Positions 33,001-48,000 of a stretch of 64,000 bases of DNA are shown here, in pieces. How positions within the stretch are numbered: the first letter of the stretch is position 1; each line of letters opens with the position of its first letter. This DNA comes from an uncultured Verrucomicrobiae bacterium (GTDB taxonomy: Bacteria > Verrucomicrobiota > Verrucomicrobiia > Chthoniobacterales > UBA10450), in assembly GCA_963834385.1 (NCBI GenBank), contig CAWIBO010000001.1, forward strand, positions 160,954 through 224,953. The letters run 5' to 3'. Position numbers: made by a program.

Positions 33001-36000
33001 GTCCGGGTTCAGGATAAGTAGCCTTGTTTCCACGGGACGAGCTGGTTTAGCCAGCCCAGAAATAGCAGGAAGCTTGCCCGCGGGCGTGTCTTCGCCTCAG
33101 CGCCGCCATTCCCGCCGCGGCGGCGGGGCCGGGAAATGTTCAGGCGCCACCTCGTGCGCCGTCCGGAAATGCGTTTTCGCGACCTGGCCAAGGGCCTCCG
33201 GCCCTTCCTTCCCGGCAATCTCCCGCGCTGTCTCCTTAACCGCCGCCGAGACGCCCCGCCCCAGTTTCCGGCCAAGCGCCTGCCCCTTCTTCTCCAGCCA
33301 GTCGACAAAAGCCTCCCGCGCCAGGATCGAAGCCGCAGCCACGGCCGGGTCGGATTCCGCCTTGGTTCTCTGCTCGAGCCGGATCTTCTTTCCGTGCTCC
33401 AGCAGCGCCCCCTCGATTACCCGGGTATCGGCAAATTTATCCGAGAGCGCCCGCGGACAGTCCGGCCGCCGGGCCAGGAGGTTTTCGATCACGCGCGCGT
33501 GCCCCCAGCCGAGCAGGCTGTTCAGGTTGCCGAACTTCCGGTAAAGCTGGTTGTAGCGCTCGGGACCGATGAGGACCACCTCGTGCGCCGGTCCGATCGT
33601 CTCGCGGATGACCTTGGCCAGCGCCCGGATGCGCGCATCCGAACCGATGCGTTTGCTGTCCTGCACGCCCGCCTCCAGGAGACGACGGGTGATCTCGCGA
33701 TCGACAAAAGCGCCGGCAATGACCAGGGGGCCAAAGAAATCGCCCTTGCCGCTTTCATCGATGCCAAAATGCGGTTCGAACATTTCCGGCGAATGCACCT
33801 CCTCGTAGCCGAGACGCGCCTCCCCGAGAATATTCGGCTCCAGCTCGAACTTCACGAAATCCTCCACCCCACGTCCCTGCACCAGGACCTTTGGTCCTTT
33901 CTCGTAGACCGCGACGCTGAGCTTTTCCTTCTGCCCGAAGAAGAGGGTGTACGGTTTCGGCGAGAACTTGAACCCGCGTTCCTCCAGGAGATTTCGCAGC
34001 CGGCCGGCCTGTTCGGGGTTGAGGGCGGCGGTGAAGACGTTCACCCTTCGCTTGTAATGGCAATTGCGGGCGAAGCCAACCAACTCCATGCCGCCCTCGC
34101 GTCATGGTACCGGAAAGAGGGACGCGATCTCCCCTGGCGGCAGCGACGTGATCCTTACGCCATCATGGTCTCGGAAGTGATGCTGCAGCAGACCACGGTC
34201 GCCACGGTGGCGCCTCGTTTCGTTCGCTGGCTGCAGCGTTTTCCCGACCTGCCCGCCCTCGCCGCCGCGGAGGAGAATGATGTCCTGCACGAATGGGAGG
34301 GGCTCGGTTACTACGCGCGGGCCCGCCATCTTCACCGGGCGGCCCGGCAGATCGCGCAACGCCCAGGCGCGTCCTTTCCCCGCACGCTGGAGGAAATTCG
34401 GGCCCTCCCCGGCTGCGGCGATTACACCGCCCGGGCCATCGCCGTTTTCGCCTTTGGGGCCGGCCTGCCGCTGGTGGAGGCCAACATCGCCCGCGTTCTC
34501 AGCCGCCTCTTTTGCCTGGCCACGCCGATCGACACCGCGGCCGGCCGAAGAATTCTCTGGGCGCAGGCCGCCCGTCTGCTCCCGCAGAAGCGCGTGGCGG
34601 AGTGGAACTCGGCCCTGATGGACCTCGGCGCAACGGTCTGCCGGGCGCGCGCGCCGCGCTGTGCCGTCTGCCCGCTGCGCCCGTTCTGCCAGGCGCGTGA
34701 CCCGCTGCAATACCCGCGCAAAAAGGCGCGCGCCGCGCTGCAGCGGCGCCTCGAACGCCACGCCTTTGTGCAAAGAAAACAGTCTGTGCTGCTCCGCCAG
34801 TCAGGCAAGCGCTGGCGCGGCCTTTGGATTCTCCCCACTGCCGCCAGCGCCAGCGCCCGGCCGATCTACCGGGCCGAGTTTCCCTTCACGCATCATCGCA
34901 TCACTCTTTCGGTCTGCCGCGAGCAGCGCGCGGCCGGGACGGGCGAACGCTGGTTCAGCCGGAGCGCCCTCAAGGCCGCCCCGATGCCTTCACCGCATCG
35001 TCGCGCCCTGGAAGCGTTGCTGGCTAGGAAGCGGAAAACGCCGCCACCGCCGCGCTCGTCTCGGGCGCAGTCGGACGGGCCCGTTCCACCCGCGAATAGA
35101 GCGAGTAACGCGGGTCGAAAATGAACTGGAAGAGGAGCCGCGTCCAGGAGTCGTGGCTCTTCAGCGTGTCGTAAAATTCCGGCGCCATCGCGCGCAAACG
35201 CGGCAGGTTGTTCCACGGGATGGAAGGGATGTCGTGGTGCTCGTTGTGATAACCCATGTTCAGGGCCAGCCGGTTGATCGGTCCGTAGTAGCTGTAAGTC
35301 TCCTGATCGGGGTCGTTGGTGTAATGTTCCTGGATCCAGCGCGCCCCGACCGGATGGAGGCCAAGCGAGAAGAAGAAGGAAAAGACGAGGTAACAGAACC
35401 CGGCCCAGCCGAAGAAATAGATCACGGCCACGTCGTAGGCCAGCGCGCACAACGTGTTGATCAGGAACCAGCGGTTCCACATCGTGATGGCCTTGAGTCG
35501 CGGCGGACGGGTGAGCTGGAAGACGGGGAAAAACATCAGCCAGATCGCCTTGCGCCACCAGCTATGGCCGACCAGGCGCGCCTCCCAATGATTGGCCAGG
35601 TCGGCATCATGTTCATAATCGCCCTGGTGGGTGTGATGCTTGAGGTGATACACGCCAAAGCCGATCGCGCCCGGGATGAGGTTGGGCAGATCGGCCGTGA
35701 TGGCGACGAACTTGTTCAGGACCCGGCTGCGAAAAACAAGGTTATGGATGGCGTCGTGGATGACGACATACATGGCGTGATTGGCGAAGGCGCCGAGGCC
35801 GTAGGCGAGCAGGAGGGAAAGCCACCACCAGGACCAGCCAAGATGTCCCATGAGCGCGGCCAGCGACGTCTGCAGGGCCACGACCGTGATGGTGATGGCG
35901 GCGGTCCAGGGATTGCGACCGACCAGGGTGCGCACCTCGGGGTGCGCCTTGAAGATGGCCCGGGCCCGCTGCGGATGGGGATGCTCGTCCTCGGAGGCGA

Positions 36001-45000: not shown

Positions 45001-48000
45001 CTGCTCGAGGCCACCGAAACCACGTTGCTGGTTGATTCCGCACCACCGGAGCACTGGCTAAGCCTGCTCAAGGTCGCCGACAAACAGGCCGAACTTTTTC
45101 TCTGTGGCCCGGCGCTGGTCACCCGACGGTGGCTGACGCAGAAGGATCACACGGCCTTTCTGCCGGAGACGCTCAGGCACGACCTGGCCGGGGGCGAGGT
45201 GGCCATTCTCGATGCGGCGGCCCAGCCTGCCTACGTGGTCTCGATGCGGCGCGAAATTCGGCCTTTCTGGTTTCCCGCGCCTTCGCTGCAACACGCCGGC
45301 CTGGCTGAGGGCCTGCTCCTCGATGCCGCGCAAAACGGGACGCTCGATGCCCCGGCCATTCTGCATGGCCCGATTGAGACGGCGCTGGTCTCGCGCCTCT
45401 CATGGACTCCCATTACGCCCAATCAGGTCACCTTCGTGACCATGCTCCTGGGCCTCGTGGTCACCGCCCTCTTCGTCACCGGACAACTCTGGCCGGGCGC
45501 GATCCTTGCCCTCGTCATCGGCATTCTCGACGGCGTTGATGGCAAACTGGCCCGGGTAAAAGTGGAAACCACCGCGCTGGGCCAGTGGGAACACGAGGTC
45601 GATTACGCCATCGAAACCTCCTGGTGGGCCGCGCTCGCCCTGCATTTCTCCGGGCAGCTCCCCTGGGCTTTCGCGTTTTTCGCGCTGCTTTTCCTGTCCG
45701 ATCTGGTGGATCGCCTGGCCAAGCGCCATGTGAAAAAGAAACTCGGACGCAACCTGGACGATGTAACCCGGTTCGACCGCCTCGTCCGTTTCATCGGAGC
45801 CCGGCGCAACATCTCCGTCTGGATTCTCACCGGCGGCCTGCTGCTCGGCGCCGCGCCAGCCAGTTACGCGCTGGTCTGCCTCTGGACCACCGCGACCGCG
45901 ACGGTTCACCTCTTCCGCGCGTTCCAGATTCGCCGCCCGGCCGGGCCCGCTTGATCGCTCAGGCCGCCACCGGCTGCGCGGGCTCGGAGGGCGCCGGATC
46001 GGCGTGGCGTGTCCGGATCAATTCAGGAACCCGTTTGGCCCGGGCCACGATTTCGCGACCGAGGACACGACCGGGATTTTCCACCATGAGCGAGGTGCTG
46101 ACCGCGCAATAAACGCCGCATCCCGCCTGGCAATCCTTCTTGCGATAATTCAGATACAGATCAGCCAGGGTCACATCCATGATGTTTTTGTCGGTGTGCA
46201 CCATGCTGCAGACCCAGAATTTTCCCTGCGCGGAGACGAAGAAGAGCTTGTAGCCGGCCATGCATGTCCATTCCGTCTTCTCGCCCCGGAGCAGCGACCG
46301 CTGATATTTGAGGATGGCTTCGCTGGTGTGAATGCGTTCGCCGCGCTTTTTCCGCTCGATCATTGAATCGATGAACGCCTCCAGTTCCTCTTTCGAGCCG
46401 CGCTCGACCCGGAACCGGCTCGTGGGATCGGCGTGGACCAGGCGCACCTCGGTCGGGATGCCGCGGGAGAGGCCGGTTTCGAGGACGGCACGCGATTCCG
46501 GCAGCGTGTCCTGGCAGATCACGCCGGTGATATGCAGGCTGATCTTCGAGTCCTTGAAGTAATCCAGCTTCGGCAAAATGGTCTTGAACGATTTGCGCGT
46601 GATCGGGCTCGGGGTCATCCGGTCGACGCTGATCTGCATCACCTGCAGGCCGGCTTCCTCGAGATCCTTGAGCAGTTTCCGGGTGAGGAGAAAACCGTTG
46701 GTGGTGAGACTGGTGGCAAAGCCGAGTTCGCGGCAATAGCGGACCAGCTCGACGATCTCGGGGTGCAGGAGCGGTTCACCGCCGACGAGCGCGATGCGCA
46801 TGGTGCCGAGATCGCGGATCTTTTTCACCCAGATTTTGAGGTCGGCCAGGGACGGGTGCGGCCGGCTGTTGTTGTACTCGGTGCAATAGGCGCAGTTCAG
46901 GTTGCACCGGTCGGTCACATAAAGACTGCACTGGAGCGGTTTCCGGTCGAGGAGCCGTTTCCCGGACTCCAGGACGTTATAGCCGGAGAACTCGCGGCCG
47001 ATCTTATCAAGCAATTTCATGAGGGGGGCCGCCCGCGGGACGGGTTGCCATAGTAGCGGATTTGCCCCGGCTGTCACATGGAAATGCGACCGGTATCCCC
47101 ACCCCCGAGGTCACCATCCGCCTTTCATCCCGGGGCGCCCCGGTGCGTTCTGGACAGGATTAACAGGATTTTTACAGGATTCCCTGGGACTGCTTCCGAT
47201 GGGCTTCCCAACCGTTTCTATAGTGGCTGTCCCACATAGGCGGCACTCGACCTTTACGCGCTGGAGCCGCGCAGGGTCACGACGGGGGCCAGCTGCGCGG
47301 CGCGCCGGGCCGGGACGTAGGAGGCAATCAGGACAGCGATCAGGGCCAGGACCGTGGCCCAGAAATAATGGCGCCAGTCCCAGGTAACGAGAAAGTGGTC
47401 GGCATAGAGGACACCCCGGATGCGGATCGGAATGCGCGAGACGCCCCAGGTCATGACCGCGCCCAACAGGCAACCGAGGATGGAGCCGGCCGCGGCGATA
47501 AAGGCGCCCTGCCAGAGGAAAATGGCGGCGATATCGTTCTGCCGGTATCCCATTGAGCGCAGGATCGCGATCTCCTTCACCTTGCTCAGGACCGACATGG
47601 TCAAAATGTTAAAAATGCCGAACCCGGCCAAAAGAATGATGAGTGAGACCGTGATGGCGGCGGACATGCGCAGGGTGAGAAAAAGCTGGAGATTGGCTTC
47701 CTCCCGGTCCTGCCAGCTCTGGGTCTCGTGCTGGAAAAGCCGTTCGAAGTGCGCCGCCAGGGCGGGGGCGCGCTGCGGATCGCGCAGCTTGTAGACGATA
47801 AGCGAGGAGCCGAACGGCTTCTTCAAGAGCGTCTGGGCGACGCGCACATGACAGTAAACGCGGGAAGCGTCGATGTTGCCGACCCCGCTGCGGGCGGTCG
47901 CCGCAACGACAAAACGGCGGTACTCGCCCCCGCGGGAGAGCAACTGGATGGCGTCGCCCGAGCCCACCCCGAGGATGCCGGCGAGACGGGTGCCAATGAT

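Follow-up and report, generated by a model that had tools for sequence, protein, structure and literature searches.

We predict that an island at positions 35024-52597 of the window, by which we mean the whole 64,000-nucleotide stretch of DNA that was analysed, serves the synthesis, decoration and export of a sphingolipid in an uncultured verrucomicrobium of the UBA10450 family. Based on its sequence, we give the proposed pathway a probability of roughly 0.55. The genome-wide survey's note had described a sphingolipid cluster at 35024-45954, and Pfam searches and translations located all the genes that it listed there; however, the island does not end at 45954 but runs on to 52597 with exporter genes. 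The note's overall interpretation stood with regard to the sphingolipid cluster, the DES1 family and a head group derived from a CDP-alcohol, but not with regard to the specialness of the DES1 homologue or a CerR-type reductase.

Candidate ceramide backbone genes in a conserved island

The core order Spt-CDP1-bCerS-CDP2/3-IPCT-SDR-flippase-ABC is retained in 20 of 20 loci of relatives in the UBA10450 family, in line with the reading of the region as a sphingolipid cluster. The gene overlaps reported by the survey are also present, with the GTG start of the bCerS-like gene (38596) overlapping the TGA stop of CDP1, and the ATG of CDP2 (39735) and the bCerS stop having one base in common. Of 201 family genomes, 180 have the bCerS-like gene, 170 the IPCT-like gene and 168 an orthologue of the cluster-type permease. 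Where bCerS is absent (21 genomes), the IPCT-like gene is absent as well in 20 and the permease orthologue in 17 (hand tally). The synteny evidence is all from one family, and because the co-loss of adjacent genes may represent a single deletion, the counts are not independent.

Spt (36286-37629, plus strand; Aminotran_1_2, 184.7 bits) is a serine palmitoyltransferase-like alpha-oxoamine synthase. Its best solved relatives are the Sphingobacterium SPT structures 3a2b and 8guh, with 279.7 bits versus 240.6 bits for the best KBL; it scores 330 and 308 bits against the NCBIfam SPT models, which is below their cut-offs, and its identity is 69-75% across all 20 family loci. The candidate bacterial ceramide synthase is a bCerS-like GNAT acyltransferase (38596-39735, plus strand; Acetyltransf_1, 43.2 bits), and a gene of this kind also adjoins Spt in loci of Bacteriovorax, Gemmatimonas and Acidobacteria. 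The candidate for the 3-keto reductase of the pathway is a classical short-chain reductase (SDR; 41583-42380, minus strand; adh_short, 126.2 bits) that lies beside IPCT in 19 of 20 family loci. This gene (g00190) had been proposed to encode a ceramide reductase; instead, the protein, a classical SDR of the cytoplasm, comes closest to the Bacteroides-type KdsR model (NCBIfam NF049977; 145.9 bits, cut-off 400) and is not of the CerR type. Because its Rossmann motif begins at residue 6, it has no signal peptide.

Also embedded in the island is a radical SAM protein (45959-47077, minus strand; Radical_SAM, 77.1 bits) for which no NCBIfam model passed and to which we assign no role. Its orthologues, with 69-80% identity, adjoin CDP3 in three loci (L012, L018 and L110). 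More distant radical SAM genes are found in other clusters of the family as well.

A DES1-family enzyme linked to ceramide genes

In animal and plant ceramides, the double bond is put in by enzymes of the DES1 kind. The minus-strand gene at 35024-36049 (likely start ATG 36016 or GTG 36049) encodes a membrane di-iron enzyme homologous to sphingolipid C4 desaturases/hydroxylases, and the assignment of this gene (g00184) to the DES1 family was correct. The protein matches Pfam Lipid_DES with 34.5 bits (cut-off 23) and FA_desaturase with 94.4 bits; its His boxes HDAIH, HLKHH and HNEHH are legible in the translation and all three form invariant columns in an alignment of 35 sequences (A1); and it is 38% identical to a nematode protein, the identity of about 38-40% to eukaryotic members assigning it to neither the DES1 nor the DES2 subtype. 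A DES1 homologue does not set this bacterium apart, as at least 577 bacterial species-representative genomes in nine phyla encode one, cultured carriers including Mucilaginibacter, Chitinophaga and Chryseosolibacter; a literature search found no published account of a bacterial DES1 homologue. The narrow distribution that had been noted for Lipid_DES was reproduced: the domain is present in 92 of 201 family genomes and, in a phylum-wide sample of 301 genomes, in 4, three of which (the studied genome G000, G026 and G033) are of the same family. Roughly half of the family has DES, the step of which is accessory.

Nearly all DES-positive family genomes (90 of 92) also have bCerS, and the two genes are at most 13 kb apart in 61 of the 78 family genomes with both positions listed (hand tally). 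In the phylum sample, bCerS is present in 4 of 4 DES-positive genomes versus 24 of 301 overall, and in G499, which belongs to another family, DES and bCerS are 1 kb apart. The pairing extends to five other phyla, where each of 10 DES-positive genomes has a full-length bCerS-like gene (37-52% identity). In four loci (two in Acidobacteriota and one each in Gemmatimonadota and Bdellovibrionota), DES is at most 10 kb from Spt, and three of these loci also contain bCerS; in other phyla DES is usually not beside Spt, with 76 of the best 80 loci being without Spt within 10 kb. In five DES-positive genomes from other phyla, searches found neither IPCT-like nor CDP1-like genes.

The DES1 family contains both desaturases and bifunctional desaturase/hydroxylases, and the enzyme could be a C4-hydroxylase, in which case the rest of the pathway would be the same and the product would be of the phytoceramide type (4-hydroxysphinganine) instead of 4-unsaturated. 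Sphingolipids of Bacteriovorax stolpii contain phytosphingosine, the Bacteriovorax locus L096 has DES beside Spt and bCerS, and JGI labels some close homologues "sphingolipid 4-desaturase/C4-monooxygenase". However, the His boxes and the Lipid_DES domain are common to both activities, the eukaryotic identity points to no subtype and nothing in the sequence favors hydroxylation over desaturation. We consider hydroxylation a somewhat unlikely but serious alternative to the 4-unsaturated base. The eukaryotic electron donor is cytochrome b5, and none was found in the genome, the assembly of which is 89.6% complete.

An IPCT-like enzyme, MIPS and the head group

The IPCT-like nucleotidyltransferase (40803-41546, minus strand), a candidate CTP:inositol-1-phosphate cytidylyltransferase, matches solved IPCTs over its full length (A. 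fulgidus 4mnd, E 1.6e-31, and 2xme, 1.5e-30; T. maritima 4jd0, 1.9e-22), and the next-best nucleotidyltransferase family is far behind (8e-10). Against NCBIfam NF041135 it scores 138.6 bits over model positions 2-222, with a cut-off of 580 for the bifunctional model.

The gene for a myo-inositol-1-phosphate synthase (MIPS), correctly placed elsewhere in the genome by the survey, lies about 82 kb from the cluster on the same contig (G000:C1:116620-118008). Thus, in the studied genome MIPS is outside the island, and OEP2 abuts a UvrD-like gene instead. By contrast, all 8 relatives examined share the order permease-adaptor-OEP-OEP-MIPS, with MIPS abutting the cluster, and in 54 family genomes MIPS is at most 36 kb from bCerS (hand tally). 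Among 114 high-quality family genomes, 6 are without both bCerS and MIPS, 4 without bCerS only and 1 without MIPS only (Fisher p 5e-7, kinship ignored), and the 6 double-loss genomes represent three genera. In four high-quality genomes MIPS is present although the cluster is absent, so MIPS serves or once served another purpose. Among the CDP-OH genes of the genome, which outside the island are two PgsA and one PssA, none passes the cut-off for a canonical PIP synthase. While the earlier proposal of a phospho-alcohol built from a CDP-alcohol stands, the linkage of MIPS, its co-loss and the lack of a PIP synthase suggest that inositol as the head group is better founded than the guess it had been.

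In Caulobacter, the ceramide head group depends on the IPCT-like cytidylyltransferase CpgD and the CDP-alcohol transferase-domain protein CpgA, and the locus also contains a flippase and spare Lpt genes (PMC12275187, PMC11324152). CpgD, an IPCT-like COG1213 enzyme, is described there as making CDP-glycerate (PMC12275187), and family membership does not reveal the substrate. The verrucomicrobial enzyme might, then, activate phosphoglycerate, glycerol phosphate, phosphoethanolamine or another compound to give a ceramide phosphoglycerate-like or similar lipid, and the position of MIPS outside the island would fit this. However, the reported identity of CpgD to T. maritima IMPCT is 24% (PMC12275187), whereas the island's enzyme is much closer to solved IPCTs; the Caulobacter route needs CpgB, whereas no ceramide kinase gene was found within the island; and relatives show both the physical linkage of MIPS to the cluster and the joint loss of the two. 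A head group other than inositol is, in our assessment, unlikely. DAGK_cat and PAP2 proteins are encoded elsewhere in the genome and may provide a ceramide kinase or a PI-dependent IPC synthase.

Three CDP-alcohol phosphotransferases

Pfam identifies a CDP-OH_P_transf domain in three plus-strand proteins of the island. CDP1 (37652-38599, alternative start TTG 37601; 34.9 bits) is compact and has the canonical motif DNADGQLAR...GRMNDSFAD; its nearest NCBIfam and PDB relatives, all weak matches, are archaetidylinositol-phosphate and PIP synthases. CDP2 (39735-40841; 36 bits, residues 167-260) is extended at its N-terminus by about 150 aa, has the canonical motif DGCDGEIAR...GRRLDTACD and best matches the DIPP-synthase half of IPCT/DIPPS (NCBIfam, 60.9 bits). 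CDP3 (g00193; 44677-45954) had been listed as a CDP-alcohol phosphotransferase-family protein; that domain is present, but it follows a degenerate nucleotidyltransferase domain, in a two-domain layout like that of IPCT-DIPPS and AF2299. Its AlphaFold model (pLDDT 85.2, pTM 0.81) matches AF2299 (E 1.1e-12, TMt 0.81) and IPCT-DIPPS 4mnd (E 1.5e-12), and the N-domain, which is without a GxGxR/K motif, matches MurU and RmlA. The variant motif DGxDGKxAR...GxxEHxxDxxxE is kept in 8 of 8 CDP3 orthologues, and CDP3, too, best matches the DIPP-synthase half of IPCT/DIPPS (57.1 bits). For all three proteins the best matches are inositol-phosphate-type models, at 27-61 bits and far below the curated cut-offs of 170-580.

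The DIPP-synthase matches of CDP2 and CDP3 and the predicted IPCT-DIPPS fold of CDP3 would also fit synthesis, together with IPCT, of the soluble osmolyte di-myo-inositol phosphate by genes that merely neighbor those for ceramide. We hold this to be highly improbable, given that the two scores are a tenth of the model cut-off, that CDP3 combines a variant catalytic motif with a degenerate N-domain and that the genes are co-lost with bCerS; to our knowledge, this osmolyte is known from hyperthermophiles and not from mesophilic soil bacteria.

Alternatively, the transferases could use diacylglycerol, resulting in Kennedy-type phosphatidylinositol, and ceramide would be free or receive its head group from an enzyme encoded elsewhere. 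A CDP-inositol route has been proposed, not proven, for Bacteroides vulgatus and Prevotella, and the alternative pathway proposed for Bacteroides vulgatus joins CDP-inositol and diacylglycerol (PMC9246714). The verrucomicrobial genome is without a PIP synthase, and therefore any PI would need this route; PAP2 proteins encoded outside the island could then move the head group to ceramide. Against this, CDP1 is located between Spt and bCerS with its stop overlapping the bCerS start, it holds this position in the 13 of 20 family loci with the canonical form, the IPCT-like gene is lost along with bCerS in 20 of 21 genomes, and no HAD or PAP2 gene was found within the island. We judge diacylglycerol to be quite an improbable acceptor and favor ceramide.

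A flippase and a tripartite exporter

The ABC ATPase listed by the survey (43915-44619, minus strand; ABC_tran, 117.7 bits) is present, as one component of a tripartite MacB/TolC-type exporter whose other components include an adaptor and two TolC-like proteins. The ATPase is of the MacB/LolD type (LolD TIGR02211, 241.7 bits, cut-off 307.75; DevA, 184.9; MacB, 183.7). The FtsX/MacB-type permease (47254-48492, minus strand; FtsX, 67.8 bits; MacB_PCD, 45 bits) is a second, divergent LolC/E-like copy with 160-165 bits against the lolCE model, versus 315 bits for another copy at G000:C2:301780. The periplasmic adaptor, a membrane fusion protein (48489-49640, minus strand; HlyD_D23, 72.9 bits), scores 138.9 bits against TIGR01730 RND_mfp, above the cut-off of 94.9, and 76.4 bits against MacA. 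The island closes with two genes for outer-membrane channels of the TolC family (49653-50981 and 50978-52597, together 49653-52597, minus strand; OEP, 97.9 and 169.1 bits; TolC TIGR01844, 39.3 and 131.4 bits); in many relatives, a MIPS gene is located at this end. A MOP-superfamily flippase-like membrane protein (42398-43984, minus strand; Polysacc_synt, 49.9 bits; Polysacc_synt_3, 33.2 bits) was seen in 15 of the 20 family loci, some loci being truncated at their edge.

Discussion

We suggest the following model. Spt would condense serine and an acyl thioester to 3-ketosphinganine, which the bCerS-like GNAT would N-acylate and the cytoplasmic classical SDR would reduce at the 3-keto group, in either order. 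As an accessory step, the DES1-family di-iron membrane enzyme would act on the long-chain base of dihydroceramide at C4-C5, resulting in a 4-ene (sphingosine-type) or 4-hydroxy (phyto-type) ceramide. In parallel, MIPS would provide inositol phosphate, which the IPCT-like enzyme would convert to CDP-inositol. CDP1, which appears to be translationally coupled between Spt and bCerS, would then catalyze a Kennedy-type reaction in which the C1 hydroxyl of ceramide receives phospho-inositol from CDP-inositol and inositol-phosphoceramide is formed, while its DIPPS-like paralogues CDP2 and CDP3 may attach another phospho-alcohol or work on a second acceptor. Finally, the lipid would reach the outer membrane by way of the MOP flippase and the MacB-type ABC transporter, the latter together with its adaptor and the TolC-like proteins. 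In this model, the most likely product that the conserved cluster of this soil verrucomicrobium is predicted to build, modify and export is an inositol-phosphate ceramide lipid.

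Gene content of the island

The sphingolipid gene cluster (the island) occupies positions 35024-52597 of the window. The window has a G+C content of 60-69% and therefore many spurious open frames; Pfam and NCBIfam scans single out one gene per stretch of the island. By these scans, all cluster genes listed in the genome-wide survey's note were found at their places, but the span given there was too short: beyond the core genes, the island runs five genes further on the minus strand, to 52597. Its gene content marks the island as a bacterial sphingolipid locus of known type that additionally holds a candidate DES1-type step, a probable direct transfer from CDP-inositol to ceramide and a linked exporter.

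Several genes in and around the island are noted here for their position. A radical SAM gene between CDP3 (the third of the island's CDP-alcohol phosphotransferase-domain proteins) and the permease (45959-47077, minus strand) passes no curated model. Its orthologues (69-80% identity) accompany CDP3 in three other loci (L012, L018 and L110), and radical SAM genes of lower similarity (26-53%) occur in the clusters of six (L009, L015, L023, L026, L115 and L122); the protein may be a lipid-modifying enzyme. A glycosyltransferase gene 7 kb upstream of the DES1-family gene (27433-28341, minus strand) matches GT family 2 and GT family 21 (Glyco_transf_21, 44 bits), the family of ceramide glucosyltransferase. 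The TolC-like genes are followed immediately by an AddAB-like pair (52528-58673, minus strand), which consists of a helicase of UvrD type with 1052 aa and a PD-(D/E)XK nuclease protein of 996 aa.

Conservation in the family

We compared twenty 20-kb loci around the candidate ceramide synthase gene (bCerS) from relatives, of which 12 were picked because the DES1-family gene (DES) is linked to bCerS, three have DES unlinked and five are without DES. A serine palmitoyltransferase-like (Spt) gene, a CDP1-type gene and bCerS are present in 20 of 20 loci, and the pair of a CTP:inositol-1-phosphate cytidylyltransferase-like (IPCT-like) gene and a short-chain reductase (SDR) gene in 19 of 20, most of them with CDP2 and/or CDP3, flippase and ABC genes. 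Among the 201 genomes of the family (and the 114 of high quality), bCerS-like genes occur in 180 (104), IPCT-like genes in 170 (102), the cluster-type permease in 168 (101), myo-inositol-1-phosphate synthase (MIPS) in 182 (107) and Lipid_DES in 92 (57). In the bCerS-negative family genomes, IPCT-like genes are missing in 20 of 21 and the permease orthologue in 17 of 21, as tallied by hand and with the twenty-first genome, G195, assigned from its absence in the list of matches. The family tallies take in five unpublished genomes (G002, G014, G135, G155 and G172), but no conclusion depends on these five by themselves; the counts overstate independence because the genomes are kin and the genes adjacent. 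In one single-contig genome (G200; loci L013 and L110), flippase, ATPase, permease, adaptor, second TolC-family gene, CDP3 and MIPS each match in several shifted pieces, which looks like many frameshifts, arising either from decay of the island or from indel errors in the assembly.

The host family is reportedly very abundant in soil metagenomes, and close homologues form clusters of hundreds to thousands of members. A search of sequencing runs returned three soil DNA runs with small word shares and no RNA run among the matches.

Candidate ceramide backbone enzymes

Three island genes are candidates for ceramide backbone synthesis. The Spt-like alpha-oxoamine synthase (36286-37629, plus strand) has the Sphingobacterium serine palmitoyltransferase (3a2b) as its best solved relative, with 279.7 bits vs 240.6 for KBL; it scores 330.1, 307.7 and 253.9 bits on the NCBIfam SPT models and 341.3 bits on bioF, all below the cut-offs. 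The bCerS-like protein (38596-39735, plus strand) is a GNAT-fold acyltransferase of about 380 aa (Acetyltransf_1, 43.2 bits) for which no solved structure was matched. The survey's note gives it 35% identity (E 8e-66) to the Caulobacter ceramide synthase. Its gene adjoins Spt in 20 of 20 family loci as well as in loci from Bacteriovorax, Gemmatimonas and Acidobacteria (L096, L092 and L073).

The SDR (41583-42380, minus strand) scores 126.2 bits on adh_short, 159.2 bits on PRK06179 and 145.9 bits on the KdsR model NF049977, where it misses the cut-off of 400 even though the match spans model positions 6-267 of 267. By these scores, it is best described as a related subfamily of KdsR and not as an equivalog. 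As its Rossmann motif begins at residue 6, the protein has too short an N-terminus for a signal peptide. In Caulobacter, CerR is a periplasmic, NDUFA9-like reductase, according to the accessible part of PMC11087976. Thus, a classical SDR that has its Rossmann motif at the start and KdsR as its nearest relative is unlike CerR, and a CerR-type ceramide reductase is not upheld.

A DES1-family protein within a broad bacterial family

The island begins with the DES gene (35024-36049, minus strand). The encoded protein has a Lipid_DES domain (PF08557, 34.5 bits against a cut-off of 23) at residues 14-48, followed by an FA_desaturase domain (PF00487, 94.4 bits), and the three His boxes HDAIH, HLKHH and HNEHH are read in its translation, which bears out its description as a DES1-type protein. 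The His-box columns are invariant or nearly so across 35 aligned members of the family. A DES1 homologue is not peculiar to this bacterium. In a scan with one genome per species and the 35-sequence alignment as query, at least 600 stretches matched and at least 577 of these encode a DES relative. The best 80 of these matches come from Myxococcota, Acidobacteriota, Bdellovibrionota, Bacteroidota, Gemmatimonadota, Planctomycetota, Pseudomonadota and Eisenbacteria, and include cultured strains of Mucilaginibacter, Chitinophaga and Chryseosolibacter. An exhaustive, profile-free search of 1.84 billion cluster representatives gave 420 matches with E up to 1e-30, among them a nematode protein with 38% identity to the window's DES; the nematode was the one organism name obtained from ten clusters looked up. 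In FastTree trees, in which the backbone is weak (support 82-90), the window's DES falls among bacterial sequences, and its nearest named neighbour on this weak backbone is a Thermoanaerobaculia sequence with 53% identity.

Among the best 80 loci, Spt is within 10 kb of DES in four and bCerS in three (Acidobacteriota, Gemmatimonadota and Bdellovibrionota), while 76 are without linkage. A full-length bCerS-like gene (37-52% identity) is present in 10 of 10 genomes tested, all of them DES-positive and from five other phyla. Within the family, 90 of the 92 DES-positive genomes have bCerS. Both positions are listed for 78 of the 92, with 61 pairs within 13 kb, two far apart on the same contig and 15 on different contigs (hand tally); the bCerS position is unlisted in 12. 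In a sample of 301 genomes from the phylum, bCerS-like genes occur in 24 and Lipid_DES in four, all four being among the 24: the window's own genome and two others of the family (G026 and G033) and one of another family (G499), in which DES and bCerS are 1 kb apart. Taken together, the domain matches and distribution identify the window's DES as a real member of the DES1 family that is tied to ceramide makers and part of a broad bacterial family. Its association with bCerS makes action at C4 of dihydroceramide, giving a 4,5 double bond or a 4-hydroxyl, the candidate activity.

The protein resembles eukaryotic DES1/DEGS1 (and the bifunctional DES2) in its Lipid_DES N-domain, its three His boxes, its length of ~330 aa and an identity of about 38-40%. 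It differs in being bacterial, part of a broad radiation over those at least 577 species genomes, and in residing in a genome (89.6% complete) in which cytochrome b5 (PF00173) was not found. Cytochrome b5 supplies the electrons for eukaryotic DES1; therefore, another electron donor must be assumed for the window's DES.

A literature search, with subscription journals mostly outside its reach, found no publication on a bacterial DES1 homologue, and a search on Verrucomicrobia or Udaeobacter and sphingolipids found nothing relevant. A Black Sea study described 22 Verrucomicrobiota MAGs with Spt-like genes and did not mention a desaturase. An Atlas search returned only generic GNAT and desaturase cluster names. 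In two Acidobacteriota MAGs (L030 and L033), a gene for a CDP2-like transferase lies 2-3 kb upstream of a tandem pair of DES genes that share 53-55% identity with that of the window, and in a gammaproteobacterial locus (L063) a CDP3-like gene lies 4 kb from DES.

Candidate head-group transferases and the probable head group

The full length of the IPCT-like nucleotidyltransferase (40803-41546, minus strand) can be aligned to the IPCT domain of the Archaeoglobus fulgidus enzymes (4mnd, E 1.6e-31; 2xme, 1.5e-30) and also to the Thermotoga maritima enzyme IMPCT (4jd0, E 1.9e-22), while the next nucleotidyltransferase family follows at about 8e-10 (7.9e-10). The three CDP-alcohol phosphotransferase-domain proteins, CDP1 (37652-38599), CDP2 (39735-40841) and CDP3 (44677-45954), are all encoded on the plus strand. 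In the genome search, they score 37-38 bits on the Pfam CDP-OH model, and the genome's other three CDP-OH genes 73-138 bits. The latter comprise two PgsA genes and a PssA gene, all of which pass their NCBIfam cut-offs; by the same cut-offs, none of the three is a PIP synthase.

CDP1 and CDP2 have the full CDP-alcohol signature Dx2DGx2AR...Gx3Dx3D. The TGA stop of CDP1 is overlapped by the GTG start of bCerS, and the bCerS stop and the CDP2 ATG have one base in common. Given its place between Spt and bCerS, and its translational coupling to the latter, CDP1 is the strongest candidate to act on ceramide. The two DIPPS-like proteins, CDP2 and CDP3, differ in their occurrence between relatives; a possible role for them is addition of a second phospho-inositol or use of a second acceptor. 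Six loci (L012, L013, L018, L019, L023 and L026) have a different CDP1-like paralogue on the other strand; its motif, DSADGQLAR...GRVLDGxxG, has Gly at the position of the fourth catalytic Asp. In these six loci, Spt lies 5-6 kb from bCerS and does not abut it.

CDP3 deviates from the signature (DGVDGKLAR...GQWEHEVDYAIE), and the variant GxxEHxxDxxxE, in place of GxxxDxxxD, is kept in 8 of 8 orthologues. An AlphaFold model from nine sequences (pLDDT 85.2, pTM 0.81) matches AF2299 (4O6M; E 1.1e-12, TMt 0.81) and IPCT-DIPPS (4MND; E 1.5e-12) of A. fulgidus, i.e. the same two-domain fold, and the model of the N-domain matches MurU and RmlA. We rejected the idea that CDP3 is an active bifunctional IPCT/DIPPS: the fold is shared, but the GxGxR/K motif has been lost from the N-domain and the score on NF041135 is 57.1 bits against a cut-off of 580. 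The island also differs from the archaeal system in its context, which is lipid synthesis and not solute synthesis.

The substrate of the IPCT-like protein is suggested by MIPS. In eight relatives, picked because MIPS is 10-27 kb from bCerS, the order ATPase-permease-adaptor-TolC-family gene-TolC-family gene-MIPS-UvrD is found in 8 of 8; in the window, MIPS is missing from this place, and the second TolC-family gene is directly followed by the UvrD-like gene. Across the family, MIPS is on the same contig as bCerS and at most 36 kb away in 54 genomes, and far away on the same contig in four (hand tally). Among the 114 high-quality genomes, six lack both MIPS and bCerS (two each from genera g4, g8 and g26), four lack bCerS only and one lacks MIPS only, a co-absence with p = 5e-7 by Fisher's exact test when kinship is ignored. 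This linkage and co-loss make inositol-1-phosphate the candidate substrate. Together with the IPCT similarity and the lack of a PIP synthase, they make CDP-inositol the best-supported donor. The phospho-inositol head group guessed in the survey's note is thereby better founded. In the window's own genome, MIPS (C1:116620-118008) is 82 kb from bCerS among unrelated genes. Outside the window, two very large multi-domain glycosyltransferases of 947 and 815 aa (GT1, GT2, GT4 and GT21 domains) are encoded 3-8 kb from this only MIPS of the genome (C1:120711-125998).

A head group from a phospho-alcohol other than inositol would have a precedent in Caulobacter: in the accessible parts of PMC12275187 and PMC11324152, the IPCT-like CpgD makes CDP-glycerate and works with CpgA, a protein with a CDP-alcohol transferase domain. 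The Caulobacter route, however, begins with a ceramide kinase, and no kinase domain is found among the island genes; we consider this alternative unlikely. Kinase-based or PI-based routes to the head group may also operate, as three DAGK_cat proteins and PAP2 proteins are encoded on another contig. There, at C2:1158487-1160228, a DAGK_cat kinase gene adjoins a PAP2 phosphatase-family gene, a lipid kinase/phosphatase pair of possible relevance to ceramide phosphate or to the exchange of head groups. Because the head-group genes of the island are interleaved with Spt and bCerS, direct transfer from CDP-inositol onto ceramide, and not via PI-DAG, is the probable route.

An exporter linked to the lipid genes

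The ABC ATPase gene (43915-44619, minus strand), next to a MOP-type flippase gene (42398-43984, minus strand), was listed in the survey's note. It is present, but it does not stand alone: since the island also holds an FtsX/MacB-type permease (47254-48492), a periplasmic adaptor (48489-49640; TIGR01730, 138.9 bits, above the cut-off) and two TolC-family genes (49653-50981 and 50978-52597), all on the minus strand, the ATPase is, by its gene neighbours, one subunit of a predicted tripartite MacB/TolC-type exporter. We considered and rejected a role of the cluster copy as a mere LolCDE sorter of lipoproteins. Another contig encodes a LolC/E homologue with a better score (C2:301780-303060; 315 bits vs 160 for the cluster copy), which is probably the housekeeping lipoprotein sorter; thus, the cluster permease, with its adaptor and TolC-like partners, is a second, divergent system.

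Type VII ABC exporters such as MacAB-TolC and DevBCA-TolC, the latter the glycolipid exporter of cyanobacterial heterocysts, similarly combine an FtsX/MacB-type permease, a LolD/DevA/MacB-like ATPase, an adaptor and TolC-family channels. The window's system differs in that its permease is nearest to LolC/E models, below the cut-off, and its adaptor reaches 27.9 bits on the DevB model.

A possible model for an inositol sphingolipid

In eukaryotes, the ceramide head group is transferred from phosphatidylinositol. A different and more far-reaching model, to which we assign a probability of roughly one in four, is compatible with the data reported here. In this model, one of the most abundant lineages of soil bacteria makes a sphingosine-type, i.e. 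4-unsaturated, inositol-phosphoceramide by means of a CDP-inositol:ceramide inositolphosphotransferase of the CDP-alcohol family, a kind of enzyme undescribed in any organism. The DIPPS-like paralogues would extend the head group by another phospho-inositol, and transport of the lipid to the outer membrane would fall to a dedicated flippase and the MacB/TolC-type pump. The DES1 family would then have originated long ago in bacteria and extend over nine or more phyla, and would not be a eukaryotic hallmark.

The Caulobacter crescentus locus (Spt, bCerS and CerR; CpgA-D; LptC2/F2/G2 and the flippase CC_1166) is among the nearest known counterparts of the island. In both, Spt is paired with a ceramide synthase of GNAT type, the head group is built by a cytidylyltransferase resembling IPCT together with a protein that has a CDP-alcohol transferase domain, and the locus includes spare envelope-transport genes and a flippase. 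However, the window's SDR is cytoplasmic, classical and of KdsR type, whereas CerR is periplasmic and NDUFA9-like; the island is without a ceramide kinase (CpgB), has two or three CDP-alcohol transferases where Caulobacter has one, likely uses inositol and not glycerate, holds a DES1 homologue, and has a transporter of MacB/TolC and not of Lpt type.

A CDP-inositol route to inositol lipids, including a HAD hydrolase, has been proposed for Bacteroides vulgatus and Prevotella and is unproven, according to the accessible text of Heaver et al. 2022 (PMC9246714). The 'alternative' cluster of these bacteria, as far as that text describes it, shares with our locus the cytidylyltransferase, the CDP-alcohol transferase and MIPS, and the predicted Kennedy-type route is unproven in both. 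Unlike that cluster, the island has no HAD-family match among its genes, is adjacent to MIPS only in relatives of the window's genome, and belongs to a different phylum, with a DES homologue and an exporter. Ceramide phosphoryl-inositol has been reported in Sphingobacterium, Myxococcus and Tannerella, as cited in the accessible part of PMC9246714. A search of five DES-positive genomes from other phyla found neither IPCT-like nor CDP1-like genes; the head-group module could therefore not be linked to the lineages with published inositol ceramides.

A review gives dihydroceramide as the bacterial and ceramide as the eukaryotic product, in the part accessible to us (PMC10191378). With a DES1-family gene that tracks bCerS through nine phyla, the dihydroceramide-only statement for bacteria becomes directly testable, and cultured carriers exist in Mucilaginibacter, Chitinophaga and Chryseosolibacter. 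The island also provides a full set of candidate genes for a CDP-inositol route to inositol sphingolipids in bacteria, a route that is so far unproven, and holds candidates for the flippase and the transporter that the Caulobacter workers call still missing in the accessible text of PMC11087976. Because the host family is reportedly very abundant in soil, the predicted lipid could occur widely in soil membranes and might serve as a biomarker.
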